Positions 1 through 41,819 of a stretch of 62,418 nt of DNA are shown one piece after another. This stretch comes from a virus (lineage: Duplodnaviria; Caudoviricetes), in IMG/VR virus record IMGVR_UViG_3300021963_000132, positions 1-62,418 of that record. One strand, written 5' to 3'. The notes below the pieces were generated by a model. That model did not search any database. It saw nothing but the letters and a program-made list of their open reading frames with translations, and was not told the origin of the DNA. Within the stretch, counting starts at the first letter, position 1, and each line of letters starts with the position of its first letter. A program made the translations under genes and the position numbers.

Positions 1-3000
1 TGATTCACTGACCAGAATGAAGCGACCATTGAAGGGTTTCAGTATTTTTTGCGCTGGCTTAAGGTCAATACCTACCCATTGAGAATGCGACCAATCGTAT
101 TCCGACAGGTCAATATTTGTGTCAATCTGGGCACGACCAAGGTACGAGTGACGCATATTGCGCCCAGCGAGGTCCTTGGGGCGAATGAATTGTTTACGGA
201 ACGTTTCGGTTCGTGGTGGCGATTTTGCACTGCGCATTGAACGCATTGTTGATGGACCGTTGGGGTCGTCGTCGTCACGGGGAATAGCGCTCCAGTATCG
301 TTCTACGCGCCGTGCATTTTCTTTGCCAAGAAACGCCTCGAAGACCCGCTGGTTAAGAATTTGGTAACGCCCATCTCGCGTGCGTTGAACTGCCAGTGAA
401 GGATTCGCCCCATCAACACTGTTATCATAAAGATAAAACTCATCCATATCGCCACGAAGAATCGCATCAGTAGTAGTTCTACGCAGGTCGTCGGAGTATC
501 CCTGGGCTTTATATAGGGGAAGGTCCGGTCCACCGCCCTTTGCTCGAGCACGCATTCGTTTTTCAGCAACATCAACAGGCGTATAGACAAAATGACCAAT
601 TGTCGTATACCCTGCACGCTTTGCCTCGGACAATTGTTCTGTCCTTACTCCAGTTCCCGTAACAACATGGTCGCGTTGTTGCTCAATCGCCTGTCTGCGT
701 CCATACCTTGTCCACTGAGTGGACCAACGATGGATTTCCAAGGCGCCCTTGCCACCATCCCATCGTGGGTGACCCTTTTTAATTTCATCTGGGTCAATAT
801 CGGGAATTTCATCTGGTGTTGGGACACCAATGAATACACCAGACTGACGCATGCGAGACTTCCCTGAACCGGTTGTACCACCCAAGAACCAAAGAGTGGG
901 CCTATCTGGGTCCATGTTTTTGCGTTTTGCACGTCCGAAGACTGCATCAAGAATCTGTTGACCGAGGCGTGTATCGGGGTCGTTGCTAACACGTGCCCGT
1001 GCTGCACTATCCGAGGCAGAGCGCATTGATTGAATGGTTGCACCAAATGCTGCGTCAACTTTATCCGGGGACATGCGAACAAGCACTTCCAATGGAGCGT
1101 CTTCTAGATAATCGGGGTGCTCGTCGTACCAGTCAATGGCCTCTTTCATTCGTGCACTTCTCATGCCCAGCAATCGGTCACCGAGTGCCTCTAGCCGCTC
1201 TGCCGACAAACTGCTACGACCGCCGCGGCCACGGTCATTACCAAAACGGGTGACGAATTCATTGACGCTTATGCCGAAGACATCAGCCATATTTTGTATT
1301 GATACATTGTCAACGGTAGCGCGGACGGCATAATTGTCATCTGTATATGCAGCAAAAGACTCTGCAAACCATTCGACGCGAGCAGTTTCTGCATACTCAC
1401 TTATTTTGCGTGCCGATGCACGTTCTTGCTTGGTTCCCCAACCGATACGCCGGTATTCGGGCTCAAATGCTCCACCCTCGAAGTCGGTCACATTGCGCGT
1501 TCCACGCTTGAGGTTCTCATGCATTTCGGCGAGCGTTTCAACATAGTGCTCTAGTGAACGAGGATTTTGTTTTGCGGCCATCACCTCCCAGGCGTGAGCC
1601 AGTTCGTGTCGCAACATCTGGTCAACGTCGATATTGCGAAACTCAAAACCACGTGCTCGTGCTGCATCCCCAAAATTTCCTGGATTTGGTATGGCTTCTG
1701 TATTGAACGCAATAAAACCGCTCGACGCATAGCCACCCATAACAAAGTTCCATGCCTCTGGCCCACCGCCACTGATGCCTAGCAGACCCATTCCTTCAAT
1801 ATCTGGCTGAAAATCAGTGACCACAATTGGTGGCATACCGAATTGGCGAAGTGCTGCGGCTACTCCTGGAGTATTCCCAACCTCATCTTGGAGCATAGTT
1901 CGAAGAACTTGAGCAGCCTCAAAGTTCGGCTCAGCATCAGCGATTCGTTTGATTAGGCGGCGCGCATAGTTGCGAGTATATGGATTAGCGCGAAGTGTTT
2001 CTTCTAATTCCTCGAGAGAGGTTGGTACCATCTGAGCGACAAGTTCTTTAAGGTCGGAGTATCCATAGAACTCATACTCGTCAGTTACCTCATCAATATT
2101 ACGCAAAACACCTGATACTTCTTTCCTCGCTTTTTTGCGCGATGTTGATGAAATATCCTCGCCAGTTGCTGCTTCCGTCGGAAGACCTCCCGATTGTCCC
2201 TCTTCCATTTGCTCTTTGCGTTTTTGCGTAGTTGGTTTTGGTTTTCGCAGACCGCCAAAGATGCTTCGCATGCTCTGTAGGGTTTCATTATCCCGTTCAT
2301 TTGTATCGCGTTGTGGTGCAATTGACTCTGGAACAATTCCAGCAATACGAGAGAATGTCTCAGGGTCAATTTCTCCCACTCCAGCGGTGCCGTATCGTCT
2401 ACGGTTATCCTCATTGGCAAGAGCGGTTCCCTCGAAGAGTTTGCTAATGCGCCGACCCGCTCCTTCTGGAACTATGAATTTGGGGATTACAGGACGCTCT
2501 AGTGGCGTACCTTCAAACACAATGCCATCTTTATCCGCATCAATGGCCCCAGTAACATCGACAAATACGAAACCATTAGGGGCGGAACGTAAACCACGGC
2601 CGATACGTTGACCAACCTTTGGCCCGAGTCTCTTTACTTCAATGCCTTCAAATGCATTTGGTGTTGACGGTCCGTGTAGGTCCTCATAGATACTTTTGGC
2701 ACGTCGCCGCTCCGCCTTGGGTTTTGCCTTGCGTATCGCATCCATGATGAATCGCTCAGAACGCTTTTTCATGTTCCTGCGCCCAAGAGCAGTTCGTCCA
2801 GTGCGATTAGAAAGGTCCGACATATTCGTGCATGGCATCCAGATTGTCCGACCCGAACGTGATATGCGGCGACTAATTCCAATACATCCAAGTTGGCGAG
2901 ACCTATCGCGCGCGGCTTCAATATCCGTAAAAACGTCTGGGTCTTCATCCCGTGGCGCGGCTGGCTGGTACGACTTTCCAACGACACCAGATACCAAACC

Positions 3001-3282
3001 ACCACCAGCAATAGTGTCAATCGCTACTACGCCACGAGAACCCAATGGCTCCCATTGTCGCTGAATATTGTTGGAACCTCGTTGTGAGCGTGTGGTTTTT
3101 GCTGGTACGAAAATTGGCGCTCTGGTTAATTGCCCAATGGGCCTAAGGGAGCGCAACTTTTCTGCACTTGCACATGGGTGCCACTTGCCGTCGTCAGTTT
3201 GATGAGCGCCCGAGCAGCCAAGTTTTTTCGCTTCTCGCAGCGCCCTCATCTTCGCCGCGGTTACTGATGTGACCGCATCCAT
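1..3282 (-). CDS. Giant multidomain protein (partial, at least 1094 aa, runs off the left edge): 2x DUF3721-like Cys motif, DxDxDG leader, HExxH zincin, zeta-toxin-like P-loop kinase
   Basis: Absent from the ORF track because it has no stop in the window. Manual translation from ATG at 3282 (MDAVTSVTAAKMRALREAKKLGCSGAH...) stays open to base 1. Motifs: LGCSGAH...WHPC, LGCIG...WMPC, DVTGAIDADKDGIVFEGTPLERP, HELAH (1594-1608), EYAETARVEWFAESF, FLGGTTGSGKS (856-882), DIDPDEIKK. Confidence 0.85.
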   Translation of the reverse strand, partial: MDAVTSVTAAKMRALREAKKLGCSGAHQTDDGKWHPCASAEKLRSLRPIGQLTRAPIFVPAKTTRSQRGSNNIQRQWEPLGSRGVVAIDTIAGGGLVSGVVGKSYQPAAPRDEDPDVFTDIEAARDRSRQLGCIGISRRISRSGRTIWMPCTNMSDLSNRTGRTALGRRNMKKRSERFIMDAIRKAKPKAERRRAKSIYEDLHGPSTPNAFEGIEVKRLGPKVGQRIGRGLRSAPNGFVFVDVTGAIDADKDGIVFEGTPLERPVIPKFIVPEGAGRRISKLFEGTALANEDNRRRYGTAGVGEIDPETFSRIAGIVPESIAPQRDTNERDNETLQSMRSIFGGLRKPKPTTQKRKEQMEEGQSGGLPTEAATGEDISSTSRKKARKEVSGVLRNIDEVTDEYEFYGYSDLKELVAQMVPTSLEELEETLRANPYTRNYARRLIKRIADAEPNFEAAQVLRTMLQDEVGNTPGVAAALRQFGMPPIVVTDFQPDIEGMGLLGISGGGPEAWNFVMGGYASSGFIAFNTEAIPNPGNFGDAARARGFEFRNIDVDQMLRHELAHAWEVMAAKQNPRSLEHYVETLAEMHENLKRGTRNVTDFEGGAFEPEYRRIGWGTKQERASARKISEYAETARVEWFAESFAAYTDDNYAVRATVDNVSIQNMADVFGISVNEFVTRFGNDRGRGGRSSLSAERLEALGDRLLGMRSARMKEAIDWYDEHPDYLEDAPLEVLVRMSPDKVDAAFGATIQSMRSASDSAARARVSNDPDTRLGQQILDAVFGRAKRKNMDPDRPTLWFLGGTTGSGKSRMRQSGVFIGVPTPDEIPDIDPDEIKKGHPRWDGGKGALEIHRWSTQWTRYGRRQAIEQQRDHVVTGTGVRTEQLSEAKRAGYTTIGHFVYTPVDVAEKRMRARAKGGGPDLPLYKAQGYSDDLRRTTTDAILRGDMDEFYLYDNSVDGANPSLAVQRTRDGRYQILNQRVFEAFLGKENARRVERYWSAIPRDDDDPNGPSTMRSMRSAKSPPRTETFRKQFIRPKDLAGRNMRHSYLGRAQIDTNIDLSEYDWSHSQWVGIDLKPAQKILKPFNGRFILVSES

Positions 3283-3289
3283 ATTTTTC

Positions 3290-3628
3290 CTATCTGGAAG
3301 ACAAGTGAACTTCGATGTCGTCTTCAGAAACACCGTCTAGGCGAAGAGCAACCGCAGTTGCCTCACTTGGGTCTAGTGGGTATCTGGCCATCCATAGGGA
3401 TGCCTCCTCAAACTCGACCTCAAATGCCTTCATGGCCTCATCTTGACGCGCAATTGCAGAGCGAACAACTTCTTCTCCTGTCTGAACGCCATCCCATTCT
3501 TCGCCAGTAATCATTTCCACTAATTGTCGACGCTTTTTGGGCATTGAAGAAAATGGTGGGTAATTCATTAAGGCACTCAGAAGGTCGTGTTGTTCCATAA
3601 AGCGCTTTTGGTCATCTGTCAGTTCCAT
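3290..3628 (-). CDS. Hypothetical protein (112 aa)
   Basis: Tightly packed between two giants in the minus-strand operon, with GAGG upstream of the ATG. Confidence 0.75.
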   Translation of the reverse strand: MELTDDQKRFMEQHDLLSALMNYPPFSSMPKKRRQLVEMITGEEWDGVQTGEEVVRSAIARQDEAMKAFEVEFEEASLWMARYPLDPSEATAVALRLDGVSEDDIEVHLSSR

Positions 3629-3635
3629 ATGTACC

Positions 3636-6600
3636 TCAGTCTACTCTTTCGCCAGCATGTAGTTTGGCAACCATATCGGCGCTCAGTGGCACGCCATCTA
3701 TGACCGCCTTTTCAACTGCACGAGTCATTTCCAGACCACCAACTCCACCGTATGTAATTACCGCACCACGGTTAAACACAAGCATAACTCCATTGTTCGC
3801 ACGAATTGCGTCGTATCCATAAAGTGGTGCGAGAAGATTCCTTAGCACCCCACGGGTGGAGCCACGGGCAAAGTAATCAAGGGCAGCCAATGCACGCTTG
3901 CGGTCCTCTGGGTTTTTTGCATTGCGGACAGCATTGACCAACTCCATGATTGTTTTCCCACCACGTGTTTGCCATGCTGGGTCATCTGGTTGGTATTTTG
4001 CGTAAATGTTTTCCTCGATGAGTTCGAGAAGTCTCTTGAGTGCATCGCCTTCAGTTTTTTGCGCAAATCGTTCGGGAAGGTCTGGGCTAGAAAACGCCAA
4101 GTTAATGCCACCAGAAACATCTGCCAATTCATCTTGAAGTGTCTCCAACTCCCTCAACGTAATTACTTTTGCATCAGGTGCCAATGTCGCTACGGCTCCA
4201 CCTGGCCCAGGAATTGTATTTTTGAGCCGTTTTCCAGTCGCCGGGTCCGTTTGATTGTCAGCCGTAATATAACCTTCCCAGTTTGTTACAGCGGCGCGGG
4301 TGTCGCGTCCATCCTCCATAACAATGGCCCAGTACTCGCCGACACCCTGTGCCGAACCGCCTTTACCAGGTGTCACGCGACGTTCGCTGCTGTCGTCCAT
4401 GAAGTCCTCAGCGAATGTCTTTCCGCCGAATCCACGCCTAATAACACGTGCCCCTGGAACCTTTGACAGTTCAGTTAGTTCATCAAGCGTCACAACCGTT
4501 GGGCGGTGATTCAAATCAAGCACATTAAGAATTTGTGCAAGAATTGGGTCGTCGCCAGGGTTGAGACCCTTTTGCTTTTTCTTAATTTTTGCAGCCTCTT
4601 TCGTGTCTGCCTCTGCAAACAACTTACGGAGTTCCGAAAGTAGTTTGATTCCTTCTGGTGTGGTGGCCGAATCCTCGCCGGAGAAGACGCTCTTGCGCGT
4701 GGCGAGCGTCTTATTGGCAGAATCAACCGCACCATTGGCGTCATTACGTCCAGAAGCCAGTAGGCCCAAACGCGAGGCTTTATAACGAGCGAGGATGCGT
4801 AGTTCTTTCTTCGTCTTCTCCCGCGTGCCACTGGTTACCGTACCGCCAGTTCCCGTCTTTAGCGCCGTGAGGCGTCGAGCGGCATCACGCTTACGGTCAT
4901 TGCGGGCGTTGTAGCGCCTGACCCATTGACTTGGGTCGGGGATGATTGTCCTAGCCCAGAAAGAAGAGCCCTTGCGCTTGCTGCCAGTTTTTTCAGATAT
5001 ATCAGCAACATGGAACCCCATTCTGCGCAATGAAGAACTATCGGCATCTAGTTGTTCTTCGGAAACATCACCAAGAACATCAAAATCCTTTCCTTTACCG
5101 CGCAAGCGACCATCCCGGAGTTCGACCTTGTCTTTCCATTTCCACGTATTCCCAACATCGGCGAAAATTTGTTTGTCCAACTCGCCTGACCTGAAACGCT
5201 TAACTAGTTCCTTGTATTCCTTTTTCTTTTTGCTGACTGTACCTCGTTTGGTCCGTGGGACATCTGGAACATTGGCTGCTCCGCTTTCCATCCAGTCGTC
5301 AAACATTGCGTCAAGTGTTGCTCGTGACCCGATTATTCCATCTGGCTCAAACAATTCCTTCCTGTACGTTGAAGGCAGTTGTTCTGGAATGTACCGCATG
5401 GCGTCGCCGCCGTCAGCATTAGTTGAATTATTGTCGTTGCCCGCGAGTCGTCCCTTCGCAATGGTGGATAGTGCTGCCGCATCATCGAGGAATTGACGAT
5501 AAGCAATAGCAACTTTTTCGCGCTGAGTTTTTTTCGCAGCAAGAGAACGTTTGTTTTTTTCTACGTCAGTTCCCTGGGCAATTGCTTTGTTAAGGGCATC
5601 AATATCCTTGTCCAAATCGTCTAGGCGCGAGTTGTAGAGTTTGCGTACGCTAACGATTCTGGTCGCCAAGGTATCGGCGCCTTCTTTCGTGAGACCCAAA
5701 GTCATTTCACCAGTCTCTGGGTCACGAACTCCGGTAACCAATGAGTACTTTTGAAGTTTGGCGAATTTTTTTGCCTTACGCCCTTCAGCAGTGACTTCCT
5801 TTTGAACAGTCGCTCCATCGAGGGCAAGTCGTGGCGCCATGCTGTCACCAAAGATACCAACATCTCGATTTATTCCACCAGCAGACTCAAAAGCACCAAC
5901 TGCGTAGTTGTCGATATTGGCTACGTTCCCATTCGCATCAAATTCCACAGATAGCGAACCACCACTGAGGCGACGAATTGCAGCATCTTCGAGTTTCGCT
6001 ATACGAGAAATGGCCTCTTTACGCTGCTCGTCAGAAAGACTATCCCAGATTTCTCCATCAGAATCATCAATCTTTGTGTGTCCTGGGATAATCGCAATTC
6101 CGCTACGCATGCTTGTACCACGCTCGATGGTGGCAATACGCTGACGCTCCGACACGCTCCCACGAGAAACACCACGCGATGAGCGAAGTCCACCAGCAGG
6201 TTTGTTGGGTGTATCTATGCGTTCGTTAGGTGCCATGACGGAGAAGCGACCACGTCCCCGCAGTTCCCGCATCGCTCCGTCTGACAGTTCATATCCGTTG
6301 CGTCTAAGAATGCCGAGCAGGGCGTCTCTATCAACATTGAATTGTTCTGTTTTCCCGTTTTTGAAAACAACAGTAACGGTTCTTTGCTGAGGGTCGTAAT
6401 AGGCTCCACGCATTGTTGCGGTGTTTTCCTTGACCCGCTCGAGGACCGCTGCTCGGGGAGTTGGTCTGCTGCTGCGACTAGAGGGGCCGCGCGAGGAACG
6501 TGTGCTGGGACCCCCGTCGGTACCCATGCCTTCACCAAAATATGATTCCAACGCAGAATTGCGCATTCGCATAAATTCGTCGAGTTCTTCAGCAGAAGGC

Positions 6601-9600
6601 ATTGACAGTCTCGTGCCTTGAGCCTCTAGCATCGCAGATGTCCAGATATTGCCATCTGCGTCAGCACTCTCCATCTCTTCCAAGACACCTTGCAAGTCGG
6701 AAACATTTCCTCCAGGAAGATTGTCTGGGTCACTCATCCACTTGTCAACAGCCCTCTTCGCGCGAGCAAAGTCATCACGATTCATGACAATCATGTCATT
6801 CCCAGCGGCTGCATTTGCAAGTGCCGCATATAGGTCTGCTATGCCGCGGTAGTCGTCATCGCTGAAATTTTCAGCCGTACGATTGATTAGCCAGACAGCC
6901 TGGTCCAGGGCGCCATATTCAAGTATGGTCATGTCCCCTGCAATTTCATCATCACGAAGACCTGGTTCATCGGAACGTGGGCGTGCCGAACGTGCGGATG
7001 GCATTGAGAGTCTGGTTCCCTCTGCCTCAAGCATTGCTGATGTCCAGATATTGCCATCTGCGTCGGCAATCTCCATCTCATCTAGAACGCCCTGCAAATC
7101 AGAGACAAATCCACCAGGGAGATTGTCTGGATTATTCATCCAGTTGTCAACAGCCCTCTTTGCATTAGCAAAATCACCACGACTCATGACAATCATGTCG
7201 TTCGCAGCAATTGCGTTCTGAATTGCATCGCGTAGTGCCGCTACGGCCGGTGAGTTATCATCGCGCTGCAATAGGCGCACTGCATCATCAAGGGCGTCGT
7301 ACTCACCGATAGTCAAGTCACCGGCAATCTCGTTACTACGAAGACCTGGTTCATCGGAACGTGGGCGTGCCGAACGTGCGCTGCGGAAATTATTCGTATT
7401 TGCTCCCCGACGGCGACGCTTCCCACCGGGCGGCACATCTTCGGGGTCGCGGTCAAAACCATCATCACCAATCAGGTCTTCAAAATCGCGTTCGGCCCGG
7501 ATTGGGTCCCTTTCGTTGTCGCCACCGCGACGTGAACGCTGACTCCGGCTTGATTCTGGAGCCACATCCCGGACAAGGCGGCCAGTCCTCTTGTCACGCC
7601 ACCTACCCTTACTGTCCAAGTACAGATTAGGGTCAACTGCCATTCCTTGGCGAATTTCTTCTTCTAGTTCTGCTGAATCATCCTCTGGGTCATCAAAACC
7701 GGCGGCGATGGCGGCATCGCTGCGACGCGAACGTGTCGTGGGCGTATCGTTGCCACGCTTGAACGAGAAGATAGACAAACCACGCTTCCCTGGGGCCGCT
7801 GCCAATTTTTCTCCGCCAGGGGTAATCTTTGTGCCAGCAACATTGACACGAGCCTCGGGCGTATATTGAGAAAAGTCATCTGCGTACTTCTTCGCCATTT
7901 TCTGACGAGCGGCCAATGTGTCAATGAATGTTTTGCGCATTGCCGCTGGGACGCCAGAGTTGGCCATTTCCTTATCAATAGCGACCAAGTCGAGACCTTC
8001 AACTCTGCGCATTGATGTTACGAAATCGTCATTAGAAACATTCCCGTAGAGGTACTTGGATTGAGCGCTTTGGCTATAAATCATTGTTGCTGGCTCAATC
8101 CATGGGTCGTTTGGATTGAAGGATGGCTTGTCACCTCCGCGTGCGCGGTATAGCCCACCACCGCCAGTATCGAGACGAATAGCGGCACCGGTTCTTGCAT
8201 CCCACTTGGTGTTCTCCCCACCTCCGAATACGTCCCAATTGGAGAGTGCCATATCGATGCCCATGTCAAGTTTTGCAACTGCACGCTGCCGTGCATCTGG
8301 GCGGCCAAGCGTCTCTAGGCCATCTATGCCCTCACTGATAATGTGAGGCTTGCCCTTACCATCAACGATTACGGCGACGTTTGGAGCATGAGCGCCAGCA
8401 GCACGGTAGACAGCAGCAACGGCCGCTTCGTTATAGGCATGATTTGGCGTTGGGGTAGGCTTTACGAAGAACTTACGTCCTGTCTTATCGTCCCTGTACC
8501 ACTGGCCACCGTTGGACCCAAGTGGGCCACTAATGCGTGTCATTCCGTCTAGGTCCTTGAAAGACGGCAATGGACCATTGCCAATTACAGGACCGGTGTA
8601 TGCCGAGCGCATGCTCTGGGGATTATCGTATCCGAAGAAATCCCTGACCTCTTTGGGCGTAATTACTCGACCATCAGCGAGATAGACGAATCCATCGCCA
8701 CGTGCTTCATTCGGTCCAGGACTGCGATATGGCCCCCGGACGTAATCGTCGGCAGTAGACCCAGTGCCACGATATGGCCCCTGGTTGAACCACTCTTTAT
8801 GCCCACGTAGTACGCTGAAATCTACGTCATCAAGAGTCTCAACGGCACTAACAAAATTGCCTGCCGGTACAAAGGACGCACGACGACTACGCGAAGAATC
8901 GTCAGGGCGCATGGATGGGGACATATGCTCAATTCGGTCCCAGAACGATTCAGCCATCTCCATCGCCAACAAGTCCAGCATTGTTTCATCAATATCAGAA
9001 CCCATTTCGTCACGAAGTGCCTGTCGAGCATTTAGGAAGTCTTGTGTTCGTGCTGCTGGGAAATCGACGTCCTCGAAGATATCGGCGATTTCTGCATGGT
9101 CATCGTTGTTGACATCAAAGACTTCCGCGCCAGGGTAGACGTCAAGTGGACGCTTCGACTTGCTATTGAAGTCAATCAACCGCGACGTAGCCCTAAGTAC
9201 CGTATCACGCCGGTCTCTGCGACTGCTACGCGAAGAGGGTTGACCAGGAAGTCGTCCAATTCGGTCCCAGAATGATGCAGTCATCTCCATCGCCATGTCG
9301 TCTATGCCCGCCATGTAGATATCGGAACCCGGCCCCTCAATCATCGGGTGGTTCTCAAGAAGTGCCTGTCGAGCATTTAGGAAGTCTTGTGTTCGTGCTG
9401 CTGGGAAATCAGCATCACTAAATTCTTCGTAAATTGCGGCATGGTCATCATTATCCGGGTCAAATACTTCAGCACCGGGGAAAACATCTAGTGGGTTCCT
9501 TGACCTAGTGTTGAAGTCGGCCAACTTCGACATAGCGCTACGACCGCTACGCTGACTTGGCCTTGCTCCACCCTTGCGTCGGCGCCAGGTTCCGTCCCTG

Positions 9601-14188: not shown

Positions 14189-14191
14189 AAG

Positions 14192-14818: not shown

Positions 14819-14823
14819 CAGAA

Positions 14824-28411: not shown

Positions 28412-28433
28412 TCCGGGCTCCAATCCCTAGTGC

Positions 28434-30047: not shown

Positions 30048-30197
30048 TTGTTGACTCCTTGCTTGGGATGGCGCAACGTTCAGTTGTATTGGATAGTAGT
30101 CGCAAGGCGACATTCTGTTGGGAAAGATAAAATTGGATTTATTGCTCTGGCCACTCGAGTATACAGCAAATTAATGCTGCTATTTCTGCAATTTTGA

Positions 30198-33100: not shown

Positions 33101-36100
33101 TTAGTAGTTGTTTGCCGCGCTGTATGGAAACATAAGCATGACGCAGCATGTGTGTTGCCGCTGAATTGATTGCTCTAATTTCATCTTCGTCATTAACATC
33201 ATCTAATGACAAAACTTCATCAATATCAAAATTATAAAATGGCGTAAAGTTATTTGAATCCTTTGCAAATTCTTTAATAATTTTATTCAAACTATCTGCA
33301 AGGTTATTAGCCGACATTGTGCTCGCCCTACCACCTGCCGGAAGGTCAAATAGTATTTCTCGTTCCCGTGGTGAGCCCTGTATAAGTGCCGATACTTGTT
33401 GCCATTCATCTTGAGAAAGACCGACTTTATCAATGTCCTTAGCCGTATATTTCTTGGCATCAGAAAGAGCAATTTCTCTAGTAATTTTGTCAATAGAATC
33501 CTGGCGTTGCTCGGCCAACAGATATTCAATAGTTGATTGAACCTCTTCAATCTCGTCACCTACGGCCAAAAGCATGTTGTCCAATACGCCAAAACGCAAG
33601 TCGTCTTCATCTGACAATTCGCCCTCTTCGTTTATCCGTGCTTCGATTTGGTCTCGCTGTGCTGAAATACTTGCGTTTTCTTCAAGTAGACGCTTTACAC
33701 GACTCTTTATTTTTTCATGATTTAGATTTCTGAAATCATCCAAAATGTCTGCCCGTACAGCAGGCAATAGGGAACGAGAACTTCGCATGGAGGCGGAGCG
33801 ACCGACATTCAATAATTGATGGTCATCCTGCACGTAGGCCGAAAGTGATGAGCCAGTTTTTAGGTCGCGCAGTAACACTTGTGATGAATTTTTCTTAGCC
33901 TTACTTATGCCCATCACAACGTAACGTTGTTCACCCTGGAGGTCCAAATTGGAAAGAAAGTTGTTGGGCAATATGTCGCCCAGTTTTATGTCGCCACCAA
34001 ATGAGAGATAGCCGTCTTGTCCATCTGGCGATGATGAACCAATGGGCCTTCCGGCTACCCCGTAGTTCAGTCCTACAGTATTCGCCGCAAGGTCCTGCAG
34101 GTAGCGCGCCCTCTCCCCAACCGCTCGCCCACTTTTCATGGAGCGATACTCACGCCATTCATTTTTGCTCGGGCCTTGGTCCTTCTTGCCGGGTATCTTT
34201 TTGGCGCGACGACGCTGCTCTTGCTCGAGGCGAACTTGCTCCGGGGTGAGTTTCTTCATGTTGCTGGTAACTTTTTTATCACCGGTAACATTCCATTTTT
34301 TGCGATTTTTGCCTCTGCGTGACCGCATTGAAAGTGGCTGACCCCCACTAAGGAACATTGCGTCAATTTTGTCAACACCAAGTGCAGTTAGTTGACCAAA
34401 ATCAAGTTCCGCCAAGTCCGACTTTTCTAGTTCGGTGCCATACATTTCGTTATAGTCCGCAATGAGCCCGCGCACCATGTTCATTTCTTCAGGTGACAAC
34501 TGTGGCTGCCGTTCGCCGTCAATATCGAAACCAAGCAAACGGCTCAACCCATCACGTACCCCATTGTCACGCTGCTGACGTAATTGCGCATAATTGGCCA
34601 ATGAATTGAATACGCTGTCGTCAATTACGCCATCATCAAACATGTCCTGAACAACAGGGTCAAATTTTCTCTGCGAACGGAAGTTGGGAACCGCCTGTGA
34701 ATAAAACACAATATCGAGTGGTTTCAACAATGGGTCGTTGTCAATATTGAGGCGCTCTCCGGCATCGATGAGGGCACGCATGCGCCTCTGGGCAACAACG
34801 TCTTGGTATGTGTTGCGTATTGCCGTATGGGCGCTGAGCCATGCATCGTGCTCTTCTACGCTCATTTCCCCGCTCGCCTTGCGGCGGCGCATCTCCACTG
34901 CGTCGGAGTCAAGTTTGTCTCCAAAATTATTAAATTCCCTATCATTCATAGATTGCAAATTGCTAATTAGTTTCCAGTCTTTAAATTCACGACCTTTTCG
35001 TGTCGTCAATTGCTGTCCTGTTCTAAGTGTTTCTGACTCTATAAACTCTGGCAATTTTGCTGACGAAAGTGGAATGCGTCTATCAATCTGTTCTGGTAGG
35101 GCCTGCGGGTTCGGTGCGGCAAAGAACATGGGGTCCGTAAAACGCGTGCTGCGTGCATCGCCCATCCGCAATCTGGTGACCATATAGCCACGTGTCTGCA
35201 GTTCAAGAATTATCTGGTCCGAACTAGGAAACCATGAAGGGATTGTGACGCCAGAATCATCTGGCGTTGCCGCTTTTTCTGGAATCCTTATGTTGTACAT
35301 CTCAAGTGCATCGATTAGTTCACCATCACTAAATGATGCAAGTGCGGGATTCGGCGTAGTTGTTGGTGCAACCTGCACCTGTTCGGTTAATACAGGACTT
35401 GTCTTCAAGTCGAATCGTGGTGGAGCAATCTTTGTATCGCTATTGCCAGTTCTTCTCGAACGAAGTGATGTTGGGGTTGGCGTCGGCGACATCAACAGAT
35501 TGATTTCATCTTCACTAAAGCCAAGGCCTCGCATCCAGGCAATTTGTTTTTGCCTTTGTTGCTCAAGAAACGCAGCCGAATCCCATGTTTGCTCCCCAGC
35601 GGATGGGGCAATTCCCTGTTGTGGTTGTTTTGGTTTTTCTTCAAGCGGTTCTTCTGGCCTGGCTTCAACGCGTCTGCGCCCGGTTATCTGCGCCCTTTCT
35701 TTACCAAGTTCCGCCGAGCGCCTGCGTAGCGGAATTTGTTCTTTGCGGTACTCATCCAGTGTTATCTCTTCAGCGTCGAGCCGCGCATCAAGGTTTGCCA
35801 TTGACTTGGATATTTGGCTAAGTTCATCATCAATGTCTTTGATATTTCGCGCAGAACGCACGCCTGTTGGCTCACCTGGAATTGTGTCATCAGAAACAAC
35901 GCTTCTAGATGACCGGGCAGAGGCAATACTCCTGTCGCCAGATTCGTTAATTATCCTCTGTGCACGCCGTGCGAATGAGGGCAATAACTCATCATTGTCA
36001 CGCATCTCCAAAATTTCTTCAGCCGTGAACCACTCAACATTTGTATTTTCTCCATCGCGAGGACGTAGTTTCCGCAATTCCCGCGGCCCAACCTCATAAA

Positions 36101-39100
36101 CATATGTATCGTAGGTCCAGTCTGGTGCCATGGGGTCAGAGAAGGAGTACACGGGCTCAATTGCCCTAATGTCTCCGCCGACCTCTTGCATGAATTCGTC
36201 AACGGCGGTAATCCCCGGAATCATCGCATCTATTTCATCACGATGTGCTCCACCAGGGAATGACCACTTACCGGCACCCACGCTCATATTCGGCGAACGG
36301 CGAGCCAACAGATATTCATAAGTTCCGTCTTTGCGTTTACGCCTTACAAGGGCACCAGATGCACCGTAGCGGCCATAGAAACGACGTCCAGTTACGGAGA
36401 AGTAATAGCCTTCGCCAGTACGCTGATTGTTGCCTCCACCAAGGGGGGCGAAAAACGGCAAAAACGGTGGTTTAATAAGTCCATTGCGTAGTGCCCGAAC
36501 ATGCTGGTAGGAGATGTCTCGCGCATAATGAATGCCATCATCTGTTCGGCGTATTTCGTAGGTGTCCCAGATTTTTTCGCTCAATGGCTCCTCTGGGTCT
36601 ATGTCTCGTTTTCTTGCAGTCTTCGGACGAACCCTGCGCGTGCTGCGCGTGCTGCGGCTAGTGGGCTCTGATGCTCGTGCTGTTGGTGCATGCCAGGGTG
36701 GCAGGTATTCATCCGTATCAGAAAAATCCTCAATTTCTAGGAGGCGCAGTATTTCTTCAAAAAGAGTGTCTTTTGTTATGTTTATTTCCCCAACGAATCG
36801 ACGACCAGCAAAAGACTCTATACCACGACTTCTTGCCAATTGCTCACGACTCACAAAAAGGTGATACGGATTCGATGTCTTGATTAATTTTTTAAGTGTA
36901 TTGAGTTGCTTATCCGTGATTGTGCTGGCATCTACGGTAAGTTCGCCTCCAAGTCCGGTCATGAGGCGAACCATCCCATCACCAAAGGCATCCTGATAAT
37001 CAAATTCCATCTCGTGTCGGTCAACGGGATAAAGAGTTCCGTCTGGATACATCCATGCACCCCAATAGAAACTTTTTGCGAATTCATCAACAGACATTTT
37101 CTGCATCGCCATTGGTCGTGGATTAGCGCCACGGCGCAGACGGGAACCGGCATCCAGACCCTTAATCACGTCCTTTAGGTCATTAATGATTGTGTCACGT
37201 GCTGGTGAGGGCGGCGCGTGCTCCATCAATAAGCGAAGTAAATCTGCCCTTCGTTGACTCCCCAAAACCACATAGGGATTGTTGTACATGGCTCCTTCAT
37301 CAATTAAACTTTGTAATATTCTGGATGTTTTGGCTATTTCTTGTTCATCATCATCGTCACTATCGCCAAGTCTGTCATCAATATCTTCCAGTATGGACAA
37401 AAGTTTGGCATTCTCCTCAAGACCGCGTTCTTTGCGTTGCTCTTTCCAATTTATGGCTTGCTGCTGCCGCTCTTTAATACGGCGTCGTTTCTCTTGGATT
37501 TGGGGGTCGTCGTCAATTGAAATACTGGAGCGCATTGAGCGTGTAGATGACGATGTGGCATCGGACTGCGTGGGGCGGGTGGTTATCCCCTCGCGTACCC
37601 CCACTTTCTCAATTTGTTCTGTTGTGATTTCCCAGGCGTCGTCGTCTTTTTCGATAAACACACTCGCGTGTGGGATGCGTGCTGCGAGGTCCGTGATTGC
37701 GTTAATTTGCTCATCAGTTGGAGGATTTGTGGTGTTGTAATCGATAACGATATTGCCAGGAATCGTCCGAATTTCGTAGTCTCGGCCTGGGAGCATCCAG
37801 TTGACGCGAGTCTTCTCGCGAGTTGCGACAAGCCTGATGAGCCCATCAGAAAATGCCTCTTCATAATCGTGCTCATCGCCATGGTAAAAACCAACTGGAT
37901 ATATCGAGCCATCCGGATATATCCAGCCCGCTCCCCAATCGGAATCAGCAAACTCTTCTGATGTTATTCGGTCAAAATGCAGACTTCGCTCATTACCGCC
38001 GCGTCGTCGCCGCAGGGGCTGTGTGGACTCTTCGCGTAATCGTTTTTTGATGTCGGCGCGCAGAGCAATGACAATTTGTTGTTCTTCTGGTGTCAGCGGT
38101 TCAACCTTCTCGCCATATTCCGTGATTATGGCGTCAATGGTAAGCAACCCATCTATGGATGAAGCCCCAGCATCGGTTGCAAGGGGATTATCCAATGCGG
38201 CAGAATCAGAAATAACTCCGCGTAGCAGGTCATCTCTCTTTTCTAGAGCAGTTCTCGCATACCAATTATCACCATCATCACTTCTTGGTCGCGGCTCGTC
38301 ATCACCGGTCAAGTTTGCTACTACGTCTGAATTCAAAATACGTGTTAGAAGGTCAACGAGTGTGCGATTTCGCTCAGTTCTTTTGTATCTAGTCCGTACC
38401 TCTCGGGAAAGTGCTTCGCGTTGTTCTTGTTTGGCCTTGGCGGCTAATTTTCGTCCTTCTGGCGACTCCCGAGTGACCAAACGTCTGGAGCGCTGCGTTC
38501 TGCTGCTTCGTCCATCGAGTAGCCCACGGGTGGTTGGCAACGAACGTGCTGGGCTACCCCCAGATAGGCGCTCCTCTCTAACCGATATTCCCTCAACCGA
38601 ATCAAGGGCAACTTTGCCAAGGTCTTCATCGGAGGCATCGGCAAGACGGATTGACCGAGTTGACCTCATTGAAACTTGTTGGTCAGGCGGGTCTAGGCGG
38701 TCAATGACTTCGTCAATCGGCCCGTCATAGTTCAGGAAACCAACCTCGATTTGTTCTCGTGTAAATTGGCTGGGTAGGTCTATGTTGCTTATTTGAGTTG
38801 GTGGCCTTACTATTCTGGTTATCCAGTTAGAAGCAACTTCAGCAAGTGTTGCCCGTAAATATATTTCTCTGTCTTCTTCTGTCAAATCCTCTAAACCCGG
38901 TATTTGGCGGAGGCTATTCCAGAAGTCCTTATCCCTCGCAAATGAAAGAGACGCAAGTATATTTCCCCACTCTGAATGTCGGTCAAAGGTGTTTCCTAAC
39001 GTATAGTGACCCAAAATGTCATGAAAGACAGTAAGGGGACTTAACACAAAACCACGTTTTTCTAGTTCGTCATGAATGCTCTGCCATGCATGGGGGTCTG

Positions 39101-40331
39101 TCAGTAGGTGTAGGTAGCCGTGAATAAACTCGTTTTCGTTTTTATTTGCTCCGCCAATTCTGGCATCTTCATTACGTGCTATTTTTTCTAATTCCGGAAT
39201 TATGTAATATTTGAGAAGTTTTGCAGAAATTTCATTAGCACGCAACATAATTGCATTTTGTGAATTGGCGCTGTAATCAGTCTTTAGTTGCTCCACATAT
39301 TTGTCCATAAACAAATCGTGGAAGGGGAATCGTTCGCCGTTTCCTGGCCACTTGGCAAGATTCGCATTACGTCTATTGCCGCCCTGGAACGTTGAATTGA
39401 CGAGGTCCTCCCACTTGGCCGCATCGCGGTTATTTGAAAGGTCGTCCACAATCTCCTGCAGAACCCCTGCATTGGGAATTTCGGTATTGTGGTAATCCCT
39501 GTCCCCTGGCAACAAGGAGCGGAGAATCCCATTCGGCGGAAGTCTGAGCGAAATTGTGCCATCGTCGTGAATCCGCAACTCAGAATTATTTACGATGTCC
39601 TCAATGGTAAGGTCAATATCTGGATGTGATTCAAATCCATCAATGATGGTTTTTCTTCTGAGAAGACCAGTACGCTCACGACGACCCATTAATTCCCATA
39701 CGTCACGCATCTGCCTAAGGTTGTTGACCAGTAGATACGTTTGTCGCTCAATGCGGTTTTTCTGAATAGGCGTCCAGTCCCCCATAGACAGAATTTTTTG
39801 TTCAAGTTTTTCGCGTATGCCGAGCCAGAAGTAACCTCTGCCCAAGTTATCTAATTCCTCGTAGTCCGAGTCATCTTTGTCCGTGCCCTCTACAACAACA
39901 TCACTTAGCGGAATTCTTTCACGGATGCTTCGCATGGATACTCGACCACGAGCAGTCCGGGCATCTCTCAGTTGTTCTGGCTTGCCGTCAATTCCACTGA
40001 GCAATGACCGCAATTTGTTCTCATCAAACTCAATGTTGACATTTCCGGCACGGCGCTGGTTTTCAATCTCAACAGCGTCACCTTCGGTCAACTTCGCAAG
40101 CCGTCGAGCAAGATTCTTGGGAACAATAAAACGAGGAATTATTGGACGCTCAAGTGGTTTGCCTTCAAAGACGATGCCATCTGCGTCAGCGTCAACAACG
40201 CCAGTAATGTCAACAAATGCCATGCCTGGTCCAGCGGAGCGCAACCCACCACCTAGGCGCTGGCCAACCCTGGGGCCGAGTTGTTTCAGTTCGGCATTGA
40301 GCCCTGACTCAGGAAAGTCGGGCGTCAGTAT
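30198..40331 (-). CDS. Giant multidomain protein (3377 codons), predicted to be expressed as a -1 frameshift extension of the prohead protease; DxDxDG leader, HDxxGH motif, Nudix, KTSC-like
   Basis: The frame is open upstream of the track's TTG (40244) as far as the A7 run at 40331-40337, and the conserved leader (KQLGPRVGQRLGGGLRS) begins before that TTG. Nudix: YGASGALV...YLLARRS...WSFPGGAHRDE...AVDEFMQEVG. HDILGH at 39006-39023. Confidence 0.88.
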   Translation of the reverse strand: MLTPDFPESGLNAELKQLGPRVGQRLGGGLRSAGPGMAFVDITGVVDADADGIVFEGKPLERPIIPRFIVPKNLARRLAKLTEGDAVEIENQRRAGNVNIEFDENKLRSLLSGIDGKPEQLRDARTARGRVSMRSIRERIPLSDVVVEGTDKDDSDYEELDNLGRGYFWLGIREKLEQKILSMGDWTPIQKNRIERQTYLLVNNLRQMRDVWELMGRRERTGLLRRKTIIDGFESHPDIDLTIEDIVNNSELRIHDDGTISLRLPPNGILRSLLPGDRDYHNTEIPNAGVLQEIVDDLSNNRDAAKWEDLVNSTFQGGNRRNANLAKWPGNGERFPFHDLFMDKYVEQLKTDYSANSQNAIMLRANEISAKLLKYYIIPELEKIARNEDARIGGANKNENEFIHGYLHLLTDPHAWQSIHDELEKRGFVLSPLTVFHDILGHYTLGNTFDRHSEWGNILASLSFARDKDFWNSLRQIPGLEDLTEEDREIYLRATLAEVASNWITRIVRPPTQISNIDLPSQFTREQIEVGFLNYDGPIDEVIDRLDPPDQQVSMRSTRSIRLADASDEDLGKVALDSVEGISVREERLSGGSPARSLPTTRGLLDGRSSRTQRSRRLVTRESPEGRKLAAKAKQEQREALSREVRTRYKRTERNRTLVDLLTRILNSDVVANLTGDDEPRPRSDDGDNWYARTALEKRDDLLRGVISDSAALDNPLATDAGASSIDGLLTIDAIITEYGEKVEPLTPEEQQIVIALRADIKKRLREESTQPLRRRRGGNERSLHFDRITSEEFADSDWGAGWIYPDGSIYPVGFYHGDEHDYEEAFSDGLIRLVATREKTRVNWMLPGRDYEIRTIPGNIVIDYNTTNPPTDEQINAITDLAARIPHASVFIEKDDDAWEITTEQIEKVGVREGITTRPTQSDATSSSTRSMRSSISIDDDPQIQEKRRRIKERQQQAINWKEQRKERGLEENAKLLSILEDIDDRLGDSDDDDEQEIAKTSRILQSLIDEGAMYNNPYVVLGSQRRADLLRLLMEHAPPSPARDTIINDLKDVIKGLDAGSRLRRGANPRPMAMQKMSVDEFAKSFYWGAWMYPDGTLYPVDRHEMEFDYQDAFGDGMVRLMTGLGGELTVDASTITDKQLNTLKKLIKTSNPYHLFVSREQLARSRGIESFAGRRFVGEINITKDTLFEEILRLLEIEDFSDTDEYLPPWHAPTARASEPTSRSTRSTRRVRPKTARKRDIDPEEPLSEKIWDTYEIRRTDDGIHYARDISYQHVRALRNGLIKPPFLPFFAPLGGGNNQRTGEGYYFSVTGRRFYGRYGASGALVRRKRKDGTYEYLLARRSPNMSVGAGKWSFPGGAHRDEIDAMIPGITAVDEFMQEVGGDIRAIEPVYSFSDPMAPDWTYDTYVYEVGPRELRKLRPRDGENTNVEWFTAEEILEMRDNDELLPSFARRAQRIINESGDRSIASARSSRSVVSDDTIPGEPTGVRSARNIKDIDDELSQISKSMANLDARLDAEEITLDEYRKEQIPLRRRSAELGKERAQITGRRRVEARPEEPLEEKPKQPQQGIAPSAGEQTWDSAAFLEQQRQKQIAWMRGLGFSEDEINLLMSPTPTPTSLRSRRTGNSDTKIAPPRFDLKTSPVLTEQVQVAPTTTPNPALASFSDGELIDALEMYNIRIPEKAATPDDSGVTIPSWFPSSDQIILELQTRGYMVTRLRMGDARSTRFTDPMFFAAPNPQALPEQIDRRIPLSSAKLPEFIESETLRTGQQLTTRKGREFKDWKLISNLQSMNDREFNNFGDKLDSDAVEMRRRKASGEMSVEEHDAWLSAHTAIRNTYQDVVAQRRMRALIDAGERLNIDNDPLLKPLDIVFYSQAVPNFRSQRKFDPVVQDMFDDGVIDDSVFNSLANYAQLRQQRDNGVRDGLSRLLGFDIDGERQPQLSPEEMNMVRGLIADYNEMYGTELEKSDLAELDFGQLTALGVDKIDAMFLSGGQPLSMRSRRGKNRKKWNVTGDKKVTSNMKKLTPEQVRLEQEQRRRAKKIPGKKDQGPSKNEWREYRSMKSGRAVGERARYLQDLAANTVGLNYGVAGRPIGSSSPDGQDGYLSFGGDIKLGDILPNNFLSNLDLQGEQRYVVMGISKAKKNSSQVLLRDLKTGSSLSAYVQDDHQLLNVGRSASMRSSRSLLPAVRADILDDFRNLNHEKIKSRVKRLLEENASISAQRDQIEARINEEGELSDEDDLRFGVLDNMLLAVGDEIEEVQSTIEYLLAEQRQDSIDKITREIALSDAKKYTAKDIDKVGLSQDEWQQVSALIQGSPREREILFDLPAGGRASTMSANNLADSLNKIIKEFAKDSNNFTPFYNFDIDEVLSLDDVNDEDEIRAINSAATHMLRHAYVSIQRGKQLLSAKNAIINTTSADITESEVLAIAPTTRSAKRVGRTMGRSSVPTGRGLPDTERLYPGRSEKFADSDVRFINIDGNRGEVIVGKKNGNVIRYGGLTDTEIENFAFGRSSARQALNDIATNARYVVDSGGRARGRVPDLKSLLERDIKRVQLSDNEQKTVKSILDGLVSGANAQAIESVTPEKLHSLVSRLFSNGEPAMATNILDAVDSVGVSTMFKNQIAPLSRRFGSLPQNPIDISLSSDEMGIIRDELARLQQVFQANTNAAAGFKLYDALIEGSQGSGIRSNFSVSPAQFAEILQAYEFAYKQPGLPAMSGFTPLEQAAASPKNKFDTTDMGRISGISSETLFNNGAPMSMGKEEQEKLLAWAQSSNIGIAKEISLSSRLTLNEWNGLQALRNLSPQSMRSSGTSNFTRIDNGAGSPLRQMIPPEYKNMSPVEKLAWINQNSASPDNKKGIRKQDAIDEANNIFSVLSLADSNAEQKQKFESLAYDAPDSRGSLPSFARSWDSLSSSSKDALNFQSQKVYDLDFLELNPLQAVDVIRILRPEANKKKTGPLEINDADINALWQDAITASQKTLEAVSRKLRSGMLLEEEDPQAPVGVERASDGPSSVDNSLASLLSRSSLTKRITESEKRKARTSSTPDNPVAAKQQRQNRANKISEFIAQMDDAIAAGYAARNDDMRHSLIWRDLNKLFESPSPDEGRDLSIGQLDDALSLLDDYLVSDVVADALANRGSGFGPRTNARSKQVVLKNIANAEGIRDGLQKIRESYADDPFIDRTPGRGAKLTQVIEPQRQRPSSAKRNSFNRIPDVEKYFAARRNEQQKPASMRSQKDGRAEIRAEATRFKELMDSLDVEAQKADDARTKQALLMLKQIMRRQKSGLLTDKRTNAGALFLTQRELDEIIEALYVALDRQLGRGGDVRVSLFAEMAELMAKAAMATFVDKTVQPINSRTIKKINEQGDEVEVALYE

Positions 40332-40337
40332 TTTTTT
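40301..40337 (-). other. Predicted programmed -1 ribosomal frameshift signal
   Basis: mRNA reads UCA AAA AAA UAC UGA: heptamer A_AAA_AAA (40337-40331), 7-nt spacer, then hairpin GCCC-GACU-UUCCUG-AGUC-A-GGGC (40323-40301). Confidence 0.8.
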
Positions 40338-41749
40338 GAACCACCGGCCTTGCCGTAAAGAACCTCATCAATAGTTCCGGCAACATGCTCAAGGGCCATA
40401 ATCGCGTCCGCAGTGAGGCCGTTACTTATGTGGATTCCCTCGTCGTCAACCTCAGCATCTAGTCGGTGGTAGTCAATGACTGGGTCCAATAGGCTTTTTA
40501 CCTGATACGCCTCATTGGGGGTGCAGAGCACCGTGAAAACTTCTTGCTCTTCGGACTTGGACGCAGTGGGCTTAAGCGATTCCAGGAGTTCAATGGCTCG
40601 CGTAAGTTTTTCGGCAGGAACAATGCCCGAGCCGAGTGTTGCGTCAAGAATGACATCGGCGGCTTCATCCATCTGCTCATCCAATGACTTGCCACCACTG
40701 GTCATGAACACCATTCCAGTTGGCATGCCCATTCCAGGCTTCACGCTCATTGGCATTGAGGGCATCTGCGATGGGACGACCGTGGGTGACGGCATCCGAC
40801 TTTCTTCATTGCGCATGCCAATTTTTTCCGGCTTACCAAACATGTACTCGCCAGAATCGTAATCGTGGTGGTAGCCGAGACGGTAGGTGACCATGTTGCC
40901 GTTGCCTGCATCACGGTTGAAAACGACAGAATTCTCCGTTGCGTACAGGACATCCAGTCGTGAGCGCGAACGGCTCATCAACTCCATAGATAGTGCCGCA
41001 AGCGCCTCATCGGGTAGTTGGCGAGCCTCGCCTTCTGCAAAAATATCCTCACGCTGACGGGGGTATTCGCGATTGCGCTCCTCGTGATGGCGAACGGGCA
41101 GTTGGGGCAGAATTGGACGACCCACGACGGCGGGTCCTCGTGGTGTCATTAGGGCGGTTGGCCCCATTCCTGGCATTCCGCACTTTTCGGCGTCATCACT
41201 CTTTACCGAGATAGTCCCAGTCAGTTGATTCGCGCCGTGAAGAACAGGGCTGACTTCATACAACTCAACCTCATGCAGGACATTTGCTTGCGCATGGGGG
41301 TCAAATGTGGCGTTGAGGGTTTTATAGCCAATGCTCCACTCCTGCTCATGTCCAAAGAATGCAACACTCGCAAATGCCTCACGGCCCTTTTCGGTTGCAA
41401 GGTTGAATTGAACCTTGGCAAACAGTCCACCGACATTGGCCATCTTCATTTTTGCTGGAAGGCGGGGGTCGGAGGCGGGAACTTCGTAGATTTCAAGAAC
41501 CTTGCCGATGGGGTCATTCCAACTATGCCCCCATACAACGCGAGGCTTACGGCGCTTCAGACTTTCAGTAAACGCGCCAGTTGCAACAACGTCACCGACA
41601 CTGTCTTTGTTGCCAATTGCCGCCACAAAACATTCAACAATTCCCTGTGCCTCGTCAATGTTGACCTGGCCATTTAGCGCCTTAAAGTTGATTTGGTCCT
41701 GCGTAGAGTTGCTCATATTGCTCCAATCGTCTTCTTCAATAATAGTCAA
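40325..41749 (-). CDS. HK97-family prohead (capsid maturation) protease with C-terminal extension
   Basis: GNKDSVGDVVATGAF...VVWGHSWNDPIGK (His)...EWSIGY (Ser)...LHEVELYEVSPV..GAN; lies directly downstream of the portal. The true start may be MSNSTQ. Confidence 0.92.
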   Translation of the reverse strand: MTIIEEDDWSNMSNSTQDQINFKALNGQVNIDEAQGIVECFVAAIGNKDSVGDVVATGAFTESLKRRKPRVVWGHSWNDPIGKVLEIYEVPASDPRLPAKMKMANVGGLFAKVQFNLATEKGREAFASVAFFGHEQEWSIGYKTLNATFDPHAQANVLHEVELYEVSPVLHGANQLTGTISVKSDDAEKCGMPGMGPTALMTPRGPAVVGRPILPQLPVRHHEERNREYPRQREDIFAEGEARQLPDEALAALSMELMSRSRSRLDVLYATENSVVFNRDAGNGNMVTYRLGYHHDYDSGEYMFGKPEKIGMRNEESRMPSPTVVPSQMPSMPMSVKPGMGMPTGMVFMTSGGKSLDEQMDEAADVILDATLGSGIVPAEKLTRAIELLESLKPTASKSEEQEVFTVLCTPNEAYQVKSLLDPVIDYHRLDAEVDDEGIHISNGLTADAIMALEHVAGTIDEVLYGKAGGSKKY

Positions 41750-41819
41750 TCAAACGACATTTTCTTGTACCATTGGGTCATTTCGTGATGTTTACTTAAA
41801 GTCCAACAATTTCAGCAAA

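Follow-up and report, generated by a model that had tools for sequence, protein, structure and literature searches.

Giant modular proteins of an uncultured aquatic tailed phage share a lineage-specific linker motif and may be polyproteins cut within the head

The stretch of DNA analysed here, IMG/VR record IMGVR_UViG_3300021963_000132 (the window), is a whole viral contig of 62,418 bases, estimated to be 42% complete. It is a fragment of a tailed phage and holds the head-morphogenesis module of this uncultured aquatic virus. The minus strand forms a single long operon, in which the genes for the portal and prohead protease are followed by about 40 kilobases (kb) of giant open reading frames (ORFs); Pfam and PHROG matches, together with ORF coordinates, bear out the initial annotation in this, including the HK97-type protease. 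Our subject is a set of four giants, here called G1 to G4, together with a 1057-aa ORF (o1057), and a short linker motif that recurs within them. The genes and features of the operon, in window coordinates and order of transcription, are as follows.

41820-43868, minus strand: portal, the operon's first gene, 682 amino acids (aa); PF04860 8e-45, phrog_2662 2e-58
40325-41749, minus strand: prohead protease ORF, 474 aa; PF04586 Peptidase_S78 5e-13, phrog_80 5e-28
41198-41656, minus strand: S78 domain (PF04586), residues 32-184 of the protease ORF
40331-40337, minus strand: slippery heptamer A_AAA_AAA, in the register of the protease frame and one codon before its stop at 40325-40327
40298-40327, minus strand: possible stimulatory hairpin, 3-7 nucleotides after the heptamer
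30198-40364, minus strand: giant G1, 3388 aa from stop to stop, 3348 aa from TTG (30198-40244)
28434-30113, minus strand: 559-aa ORF, acidic, Met-rich and motif-free
18329-28423, minus strand: giant G2, 3364 aa, with seven matches to the extended linker motif
15159-18332, minus strand: o1057; leader weak, a single SMRSIR site (17718-17735), zincin motif HEMTH
12155-14818, minus strand: 208-aa and 677-aa ORFs, motif-free, conserved core genes of the module
3636-12158, minus strand: giant G3, 2840 aa, with 12 extended-motif matches
1-3333, minus strand: giant G4, truncated where the contig ends (more than 1111 aa)

The giants are punctuated by a recurring motif around Arg-Ser, which the initial annotation had also noted. 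The core RSxR occurs 46 times in G1, G2, o1057, G3 and G4 (11,760 aa together), against 6.6 +/- 2.5 expected by residue shuffling (maximum 16 in 2000 shuffles), and is found neither in the portal, the protease and the 559-, 208- and 677-aa ORFs nor in 15 plus-strand ORFs (4,396 aa). Some of these matches are likely to be chance, such as ISRSGR inside the second DUF3721 copy of G4; an extended motif, [STG][MTSLA]RSx[RK], leaves out chance-like cases of this kind and occurs 36 times in the giants, compared with 0.7 +/- 0.8 by shuffling (maximum 4), and nowhere else in the window. G1 carries 12 extended-motif matches in 10 places, or 12 linker clusters by a looser rule, and its sites include the following.

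39921-39938, minus strand: SMRSIR
38655-38672, minus strand: SMRSTR
37530-37547, minus strand: STRSMR
34314-34331, minus strand: SMRSRR
33774-33791, minus strand: SMRSSR
30615-30632, minus strand: SMRSQK

Cutting at the motifs would divide the giants into 45 fragments, mostly of 90-430 aa, and the flanks 4-15 residues off the motif show a slightly lower hydrophobic content than the remainder (22% vs 28%). A looser seven-residue pattern has 41 matches, in which all six Ser codons are used (TCN 25, AGY 16) and likewise six of six Arg codons, so that selection acts on the protein rather than on a DNA repeat. This full codon usage rules out that the motif stems from a DNA repeat or a recombination junction.

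The fragments correspond to recognisable modules, the clearest of which are listed here.

35913-36644, minus strand, G1: NUDIX module (PF00293 3.1e-6, above its cut-off)
26633-26647, minus strand, G2: HELGH, within a conserved N-terminal part of about 1300 aa; HExxH also in orthologues
20792-22507 and 19265-20788, minus strand, G2: two ParB-like copies (phrog_1033 2.6e-6)
10941-11069, minus strand, G3: KTSC module (Pfam 1e-7; fold match Z 10.7)
10332-10811 and 9726-10331, minus strand, G3: pentapeptide beta-helices (Pfam 4e-57; fold Z about 20)
7731-8609, minus strand, G3: CtkA-like kinase (fold match Z 10.5)
241-1020, minus strand, G4: Zeta-toxin kinase module (PF06414 4e-9)
within 1-3333, minus strand, G4: two DUF3721 copies (PF12518 2e-10)
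within 1-3333, minus strand, G4: HELAH zincin-like module (HExxH motif)

The KTSC fold match aligned 70 residues with a root-mean-square deviation (rmsd) of 2.0, and three to four KTSC modules are present in the window; the CtkA-like match was to the H. pylori kinase CtkA (211 residues aligned, rmsd 4.3). A phmmer search of three modules against PDB sequences returned nothing meaningful, and PADLOC gave zero matches for seven proteins. Each Pfam or PHROG domain in the window's giants is contained in a single fragment. Furthermore, duplications within the giants respect the motif. The two ParB-like copies of G2 (residues 1973-2544 vs 2546-3053; 49% identity over 502 aa) each end at a motif, and G3 has several duplicated small modules that are motif-bounded, with residues 1596-1723 vs 1724-1886 (72%), 813-977 vs 978-1090 and 450-609 vs 610-811 all starting and ending at motifs. 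These observations support the conclusion that the motif marks module borders, and the earlier description of the giants as strings of discrete modules holds.

Structural models were generated with AlphaFold for G1 residues 11-1190 and G3 residues 330-1485, both poor overall (mean predicted local distance difference test (pLDDT) score 46.4 and 47.5). All linker clusters (4/4 in the first model, 7/7 in the second) map to coil with a pLDDT under 50; some 60% of each model scores this low, giving a probability of roughly 0.005 that the coincidence alone arises by chance, so we regard the agreement in these models as not overwhelming. Three confident domains were found between sites (model residues 26-98, KTSC; 154-280, pentapeptide; 867-1121, kinase-like); the second pentapeptide block and the small modules gave no usable fold. 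The initial annotation had predicted that fragments obtained by splitting at RS motifs would equal domains, and that the motifs would avoid folded domains. The first prediction stands insofar as every domain lies in one fragment, with models usable for three domains only, and the second insofar as 11/11 modelled sites are in coil, but in models that are both poor.

A second feature common to the giants is a leader of about 100 aa with the consensus ..LGxxxGxRxGxGLRxAxxGxxFVDxTGxxDADxDGIVFEGxPLERPxIP.., located by a profile hidden Markov model (HMM) as follows.

39999-40310, minus strand, G1: leader (..LGPRVGQRLGGGLRSAGPGMAFVDITGVVDADADGIVFEGKPLERPIIPRF..), residues 19-122 of the open frame; HMM 3e-55
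11238-11546, minus strand, G3: leader, residues 205-307; HMM 3e-37
2383-2643, minus strand, G4: leader, residues 231-317; HMM 4e-35

By the same HMM the leader is weak in o1057 and was not found in G2, and in G3 and G4 it is not N-terminal, so that the earlier claim that the giants begin with shared leaders is correct for its presence in G1, G3 and G4 and wrong for the rest. It has 29 invariant columns across nine sequences and is the best-conserved part of G1. Each giant class appears to be built as a class-specific N-domain, then the leader, then a module string, the N-domain being the protease plus its extension in G1, an 'MKQY..LTD' domain in G3 and two DUF3721 copies in G4. In relatives, the DUF3721 part of G4 is a separate protein encoded just upstream of the capsid gene (243 aa in G001, 546 aa in G003). 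Among 1.84 billion representative proteins the leader was found in 55, 33 of them at E <= 1e-30, almost all of which are 900-4,980 aa long and carry it at residues 1-120, at about 200-320, or at about 450-570 behind the protease. The leader had no tblastn match in 50,697 phage records (INPHARED), a protein Atlas search gave no usable match, and a complex prediction of the leader with a relative's capsid protein scored 0.00, which speaks neither for nor against an interaction.

The arrangement by which G1 follows the protease suggests that the two are translated as one chain. The protease frame ends GGT TCA AAA AAA TAC TGA, and G1 lies in the -1 frame, open from 40364, in which ATG, GTG and TTG are absent until 40244; leader homology extends upstream of this TTG. 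The heptamer and the -1 arrangement are conserved in eight distinct related sequences. In 27 related loci of at least 14 kb, many of which may be the same phage sampled repeatedly so that the counts are not independent, protease and giant form one frame in 15 and overlap in the -1 frame in 10, one of which (L021) is without the heptamer; the remaining two loci are distant ones without giants. The in-frame fusions read ..GGSKK(A) and then the leader, the product expected of a -1 slip in the window. The candidate hairpin downstream has a minimum free energy of -25.1 kcal/mol, no better than shuffles (z = -0.89), and its GCCC/GGGC stem is conserved without covariation. We propose that a -1 frameshift at A_AAA_AAA joins G1 to the protease, as the initial annotation had suspected, and the conserved heptamer, start-less -1 ORF and in-frame fusions of relatives uphold this at the level of sequence; RNA polymerase slippage on the A7 run is an alternative to a ribosomal event. 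Since G1 is entered by frameshift or fusion from the protease, gene callers mis-start the first giant, and they put the start in mid-leader in five representatives.

To place the giants in a genomic context, a protease search brought in 60 related viral contigs, including the complete relatives G001 (160 kb), G003 (137 kb) and G002 (172 kb), of which the first two bear terminal repeats and the third is linear, and also two large fragments. The capsid gene was not found within the window; in these five relatives it lies 23-48 kb downstream of the protease, and the order portal-protease-G1-559-G2-1057-208-677-G3-G4-capsid is conserved. This gene order supports the view that the giants sit in the head module, between the protease and the major capsid gene. 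The full-length G4 orthologue P0133 is 2772 aa, and the window's G4 ends before its extra features, which were noted for the C-terminal part of about 200 aa: additional repeats of pentapeptide-like type, further zincin-like motifs and, at the C-terminus, a Cys/His domain (GDGDC...HAW). The 559-aa protein shares 62% identity over 308 aa with the syntenic ORF of G001 and, by this measure, is a conserved module member; family searches of it (Pfam, PHROG, PADLOC) gave no match. The 208- and 677-aa ORFs are the best-conserved module proteins (40-58% identity with syntenic ORFs of G001 and G003), belong to no family and may be assembly or scaffold components.

The motif itself varies between lineages. 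Related loci carry PSTRSxR (L006), GGMSS/GMRS (L015), RGMASR (L018), GSKSTT (L021), (K/R)LSSG(K/R) (L045, L046, L028) or GMRSxR (L060), the representative giants carry x-R-S variants, and Ser is the sole residue constant across lineage motifs. The initial annotation had expected both the same motif and synteny in related phages: gene order is kept, and the motif differs by lineage around a constant Ser. In the complete relatives G001 and G003, the giants of one genome share a motif that is rare elsewhere, with 12 sites in the giants' 6,037 aa vs 5 in about 38,000 aa elsewhere for G003, and 15 sites in 5,773 aa vs 6 in about 41,700 aa for G001; the sites outside the head module (in a tape-measure-like, a tail-fibre-like and one unassigned protein) are probably chance. 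We then aligned six G1 orthologues and compared site positions with the 11 clusters of the window under random placement of sites. Ten of 11 clusters coincide with those of L006 (random mean 1.1; reached in 0/5000 placements), and the agreement extends to L015 (5/11, P 0.0008), L021 (5/11, P 0.0006), L046 (5/11, P 0.004) and L045 (4/11, P 0.019). Because the sites keep their place, change in concert and hold only the Ser constant, this pattern points to one trans-acting recogniser that reads them all.

The nearest cultured relatives are Gordonia phages GMA6 and the Chidiebere group and Brevibacterium phage Cantare, with portals of about 40-42% and capsid proteins of 46-50% identity. GMA6, Chidiebere and Cantare have 7-14 kb of extra genes between the portal and capsid genes and resemble the window in having toxin and enzyme genes at this place; there, however, these are separate genes of ordinary size, unlike the window's giants. 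Chidiebere (L083) and Cantare (L084) encode an RNA ligase and proteins of about 1000 aa in the interval, and that of Chidiebere also holds a VIP2-like ADP-ribosyltransferase toxin and two ORFs annotated as head maturation protease.

The best reading of these data is that the giants are four head-module polyvalent proteins cut at their linkers, to which we give an even chance. Of its parts, the proposal that the linkers are proteolytic sites is probably correct, and the odds that the products are packaged in the head and ejected lie somewhat on the favourable side. On this model the N-domain and leader would bring the giants into the procapsid, where a protease would cut all linkers, most probably just ahead of the invariant Ser, as happens at K103|S104 in HK97. 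Cutting would release at least 45 modules from the window alone, including NUDIX, two kinase types, pentapeptide helices (possible DNA mimics), ParB-like and KTSC modules and zincins, which would stay in the head and be delivered with the DNA. Through the frameshift, protease-G1 would be kept at a low ratio to protease, as in Gag-Pol. Extended to its relatives, the model describes a widespread family of aquatic tailed phages with a protease-headed giant and three further giants that share a leader and one lineage-specific code (x-x|Ser), their effectors being injected at infection; this we put forward tentatively.

The prohead protease is the favoured cutter, with G2's conserved zincin as a real rival; we judge the S78 protease slightly short of an even bet. 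Its family assignment is well above threshold (PF04586, 50 bits vs a curated cut-off of 21), and the domain is followed by a conserved C-terminal extension of about 290 aa that ends GGSKKY. The columns of HK97 gp4 H65 and S114, which we take to be the catalytic residues, are invariant in eight aligned sequences. The coupling of the S78 protease to G1 in giant-bearing lineages, by frameshift or fusion, counts for it as cutter. HK97 cleavage, according to a passage of PMC10275583, takes place at K103/S104 in an unstructured stretch, and the linker pattern hydrophobic-(R/K/S/A)-Ser resembles this site. The capsid proteins of four relatives have two conserved junctions, [M/I/V]-Y|S-[G/A] where the HK97 site aligns and, upstream, [F/I]-K-S-[I/V]-G, which have hydrophobic-x-Ser in common with the linkers. 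Co-variation of the capsid junction with the lineage motif was considered and is not convincing, as [M/I/V]-Y|S and [F/I]-K-S do not track the motif.

Several results weigh against the model, or against its choice of enzyme. The S78 domain is almost unchanged between lineages whose motifs differ strongly, a poor fit with simple co-evolution of protease and site, and neither of the capsid junctions just described, including the one aligned to the HK97 site, follows the lineage motif in the four relatives, that of G001 alone being a near match (QLSSRE). The portal, the protease ORF and the 559-, 208- and 677-aa proteins are motif-free, and the lineage motif was not found within the protease ORF's own extension. 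The repeated sampling behind the locus counts and the unexceptional hairpin belong here too, and outside the three folded domains the models test linker position only weakly. Finally, the G2 orthologues of 3/3 genomes examined (the window, G003 and G001) keep an HExxH in the same position, and the motif is also conserved in the o1057 orthologues of the window and G003. The linkers might accordingly be cut by an embedded zincin-like metallopeptidase (MPTase) in G2, and/or o1057 and G4, through autoprocessing, leaving S78 to act on capsid and scaffold only. Between lineages the N-terminal part of G2 is only 25-29% identical, against a nearly constant S78 domain, so that the specificity of G2 could have shifted along with the motif, and MPTase autoproteolysis of polyvalent proteins has already been proposed (in passages of PMC5512222). 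Even so, the zincin assignment consists of the HExxH motif and one weak Pfam match (M61, E 0.0085, below cut-off), and autoprocessing would leave unexplained both the physical coupling of G1 to the S78 protease and the likeness of the invariant Ser after the cut to the HK97 site; we consider it unlikely.

The linkers might instead remain uncut, as flexible spacers whose Ser is a modification site (for example for kinase phosphorylation) or as basic segments contacting DNA, with the giants acting intact. Ser alone is invariant across lineages, the giants contain two kinase-type modules, the window's own variant is Arg-rich, and the N4 virion RNA polymerase is packaged unprocessed, as part of PMC5512222 relates. 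The LSSG, GSKSTT and GMSS variants are not basic, however, and a site that recurs at virtually all module borders but hardly ever in 40,000 aa of other proteins looks like punctuation rather than regulation; the CtkA-like kinase was also not seen in the giants of G001 and G003, a weak point that comes from BLAST with only a few queries. We hold this to be decidedly unlikely. As for where the giants act, they could be something other than internal head cargo, whether late intracellular proteins or external or structural virion parts (decoration, fibres) encoded in the head operon, and pentapeptide and repeat-rich giants can indeed be structural. Such a role is very unlikely given that all complete relatives keep the giants between the protease and the capsid gene, that covalent coupling to the prohead protease would place at least G1 in the procapsid, and that NUDIX, kinase and ParB-like modules are the enzyme content typical of injected polyvalent proteins.

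Cutting of cargo inside the head, as proposed for the giants, has precedents. In T4 and phiKZ, head-internal proteins are delivered at infection and propeptides act in targeting; T4 gp21-type proteases cut after Glu, mostly removing N-terminal propeptides from separate proteins. Like our proposal, the T4 internal proteins and Alt with gp21, and the phiKZ/SPN3US system of gp175/gp245, involve one short consensus across many substrates. The SPN3US prohead protease cuts ejection proteins at AXE, with 14 sites in nine substrates, in the account given in part of PMC10052503. Unlike these systems, the window has up to a dozen internal sites between enzyme modules. A closer formal parallel is retroviral Gag-Pro-Pol, in which a -1 slip on a heptamer yields a minor protease-enzyme fusion that is packaged in the capsid and cut at short linkers. 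This is analogy only, without homology: the window belongs to a double-stranded DNA tailed phage, and its protease is a serine enzyme with the HK97/herpesvirus assemblin fold that lies upstream of the frameshift, unlike that of Gag-Pro-Pol.

Phage P1 packages the 250-kDa DarB by means of a 30-residue signal at the N-terminus that targets it to the capsid, and its Dar genes (DarB, DarA, DdrB) adjoin portal and protease genes as in the window (from sections of PMC9024508). In those sections, however, the Dar proteins have no common targeting consensus and no multi-site punctuation, whereas the window's leader is common to three giants. The closest match is the class of phage polyvalent proteins defined by Iyer et al. 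2017 (PMC5512222), whose main text describes polypeptides with 2-15 biochemically unrelated domains, suggests that they are packaged and their domains released by embedded peptidases, and draws the analogy with RNA-virus polyproteins. The candidate new system of the initial annotation is therefore not wholly new, as both polyvalent proteins and their release by peptidases had been proposed in that text; its interpretation, supported in part, is better taken as a plausible extension of the polyvalent-protein concept. Our giants likewise lie in a virion-gene context beside the packaging genes of a portal-terminase phage and embed peptidase domains, and they combine several unrelated domains per polypeptide (NUDIX, Zeta_toxin, pentapeptide, KTSC, ParB-like, CtkA-like, HExxH). 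Assemblin-like (prohead) peptidase fusions are noted in PMC5512222, where its main text places them 'always at the C termini'; in the window, the peptidase sits at the N-terminus and is linked through the proposed -1 frameshift, while many relatives have the two in one frame. The word 'linker' occurs 0 times in that main text, which does not describe a recurring inter-domain motif, and in the literature consulted (mostly non-subscription, without supplements) no recurring linker motif or protease-giant frameshift is described in phages. New here are an operon that encodes four giants and at least 45 modules, a linker motif kept strictly throughout the genome that changes from lineage to lineage while its positions are conserved, the common leader, and a coupling of Gag-Pol type to a prohead protease at the N-terminus.

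The phage is widespread and the family common. Homologues of the protease ORF number 640 at E <= 1e-20 among 8000 candidates scored. Near-identical DNA to positions 39800-41800 (at least 86% of sampled 31-mers) is present in 16 DNA runs, 14 of which come from nine studies besides two possible source samples and span marine, estuary, freshwater, aquatic and ballast-water material. If the linkers are cut, the giants would be the clearest example of a tailed phage that processes polyproteins, and a readable site code would make the mature products of hundreds of uncharacterised giant phage proteins predictable from sequence. If the polyprotein reading is true, as much as one third of the genome would amount to a library of modular effectors that can be shuffled, its punctuation evolving together with the cutter, offering a tractable test of joint change in protease specificity and dozens of sites. 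The leader and linkers could also serve as a natural means of packing many heterologous proteins in a capsid.

The plus strand of the window encodes a large terminase (TerL), Rad52-like, PD-(D/E)XK, RuvC-like and ParB-like proteins, a class II ribonucleotide reductase and a PAPS-reductase-like protein, with the genes for TerL, portal and protease adjacent. Seven short pieces from RNA-library contigs (four runs, 26000-44000) all fall in the protease and 559-aa ORFs and leave the slippery site unspanned; one such contig (depth 2.7) is missing 15 bases near 29659, in the 559-aa ORF, probably a strain variant in the acidic repeat region. Met/Pro/Gly-rich low-complexity sequence (PGMPGMP.., MPSMPMSVKPGMGMP..) recurs in the C-terminal part of the portal, in the protease extension and in the acidic 559-aa protein. 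The large terminase (777 aa; 44154-46487, plus strand) has terminase matches at residues 6-126 and 539-763, and between them, at residues 350-406, a LAGLIDADG_3 match, so that the insert is probably an intein.

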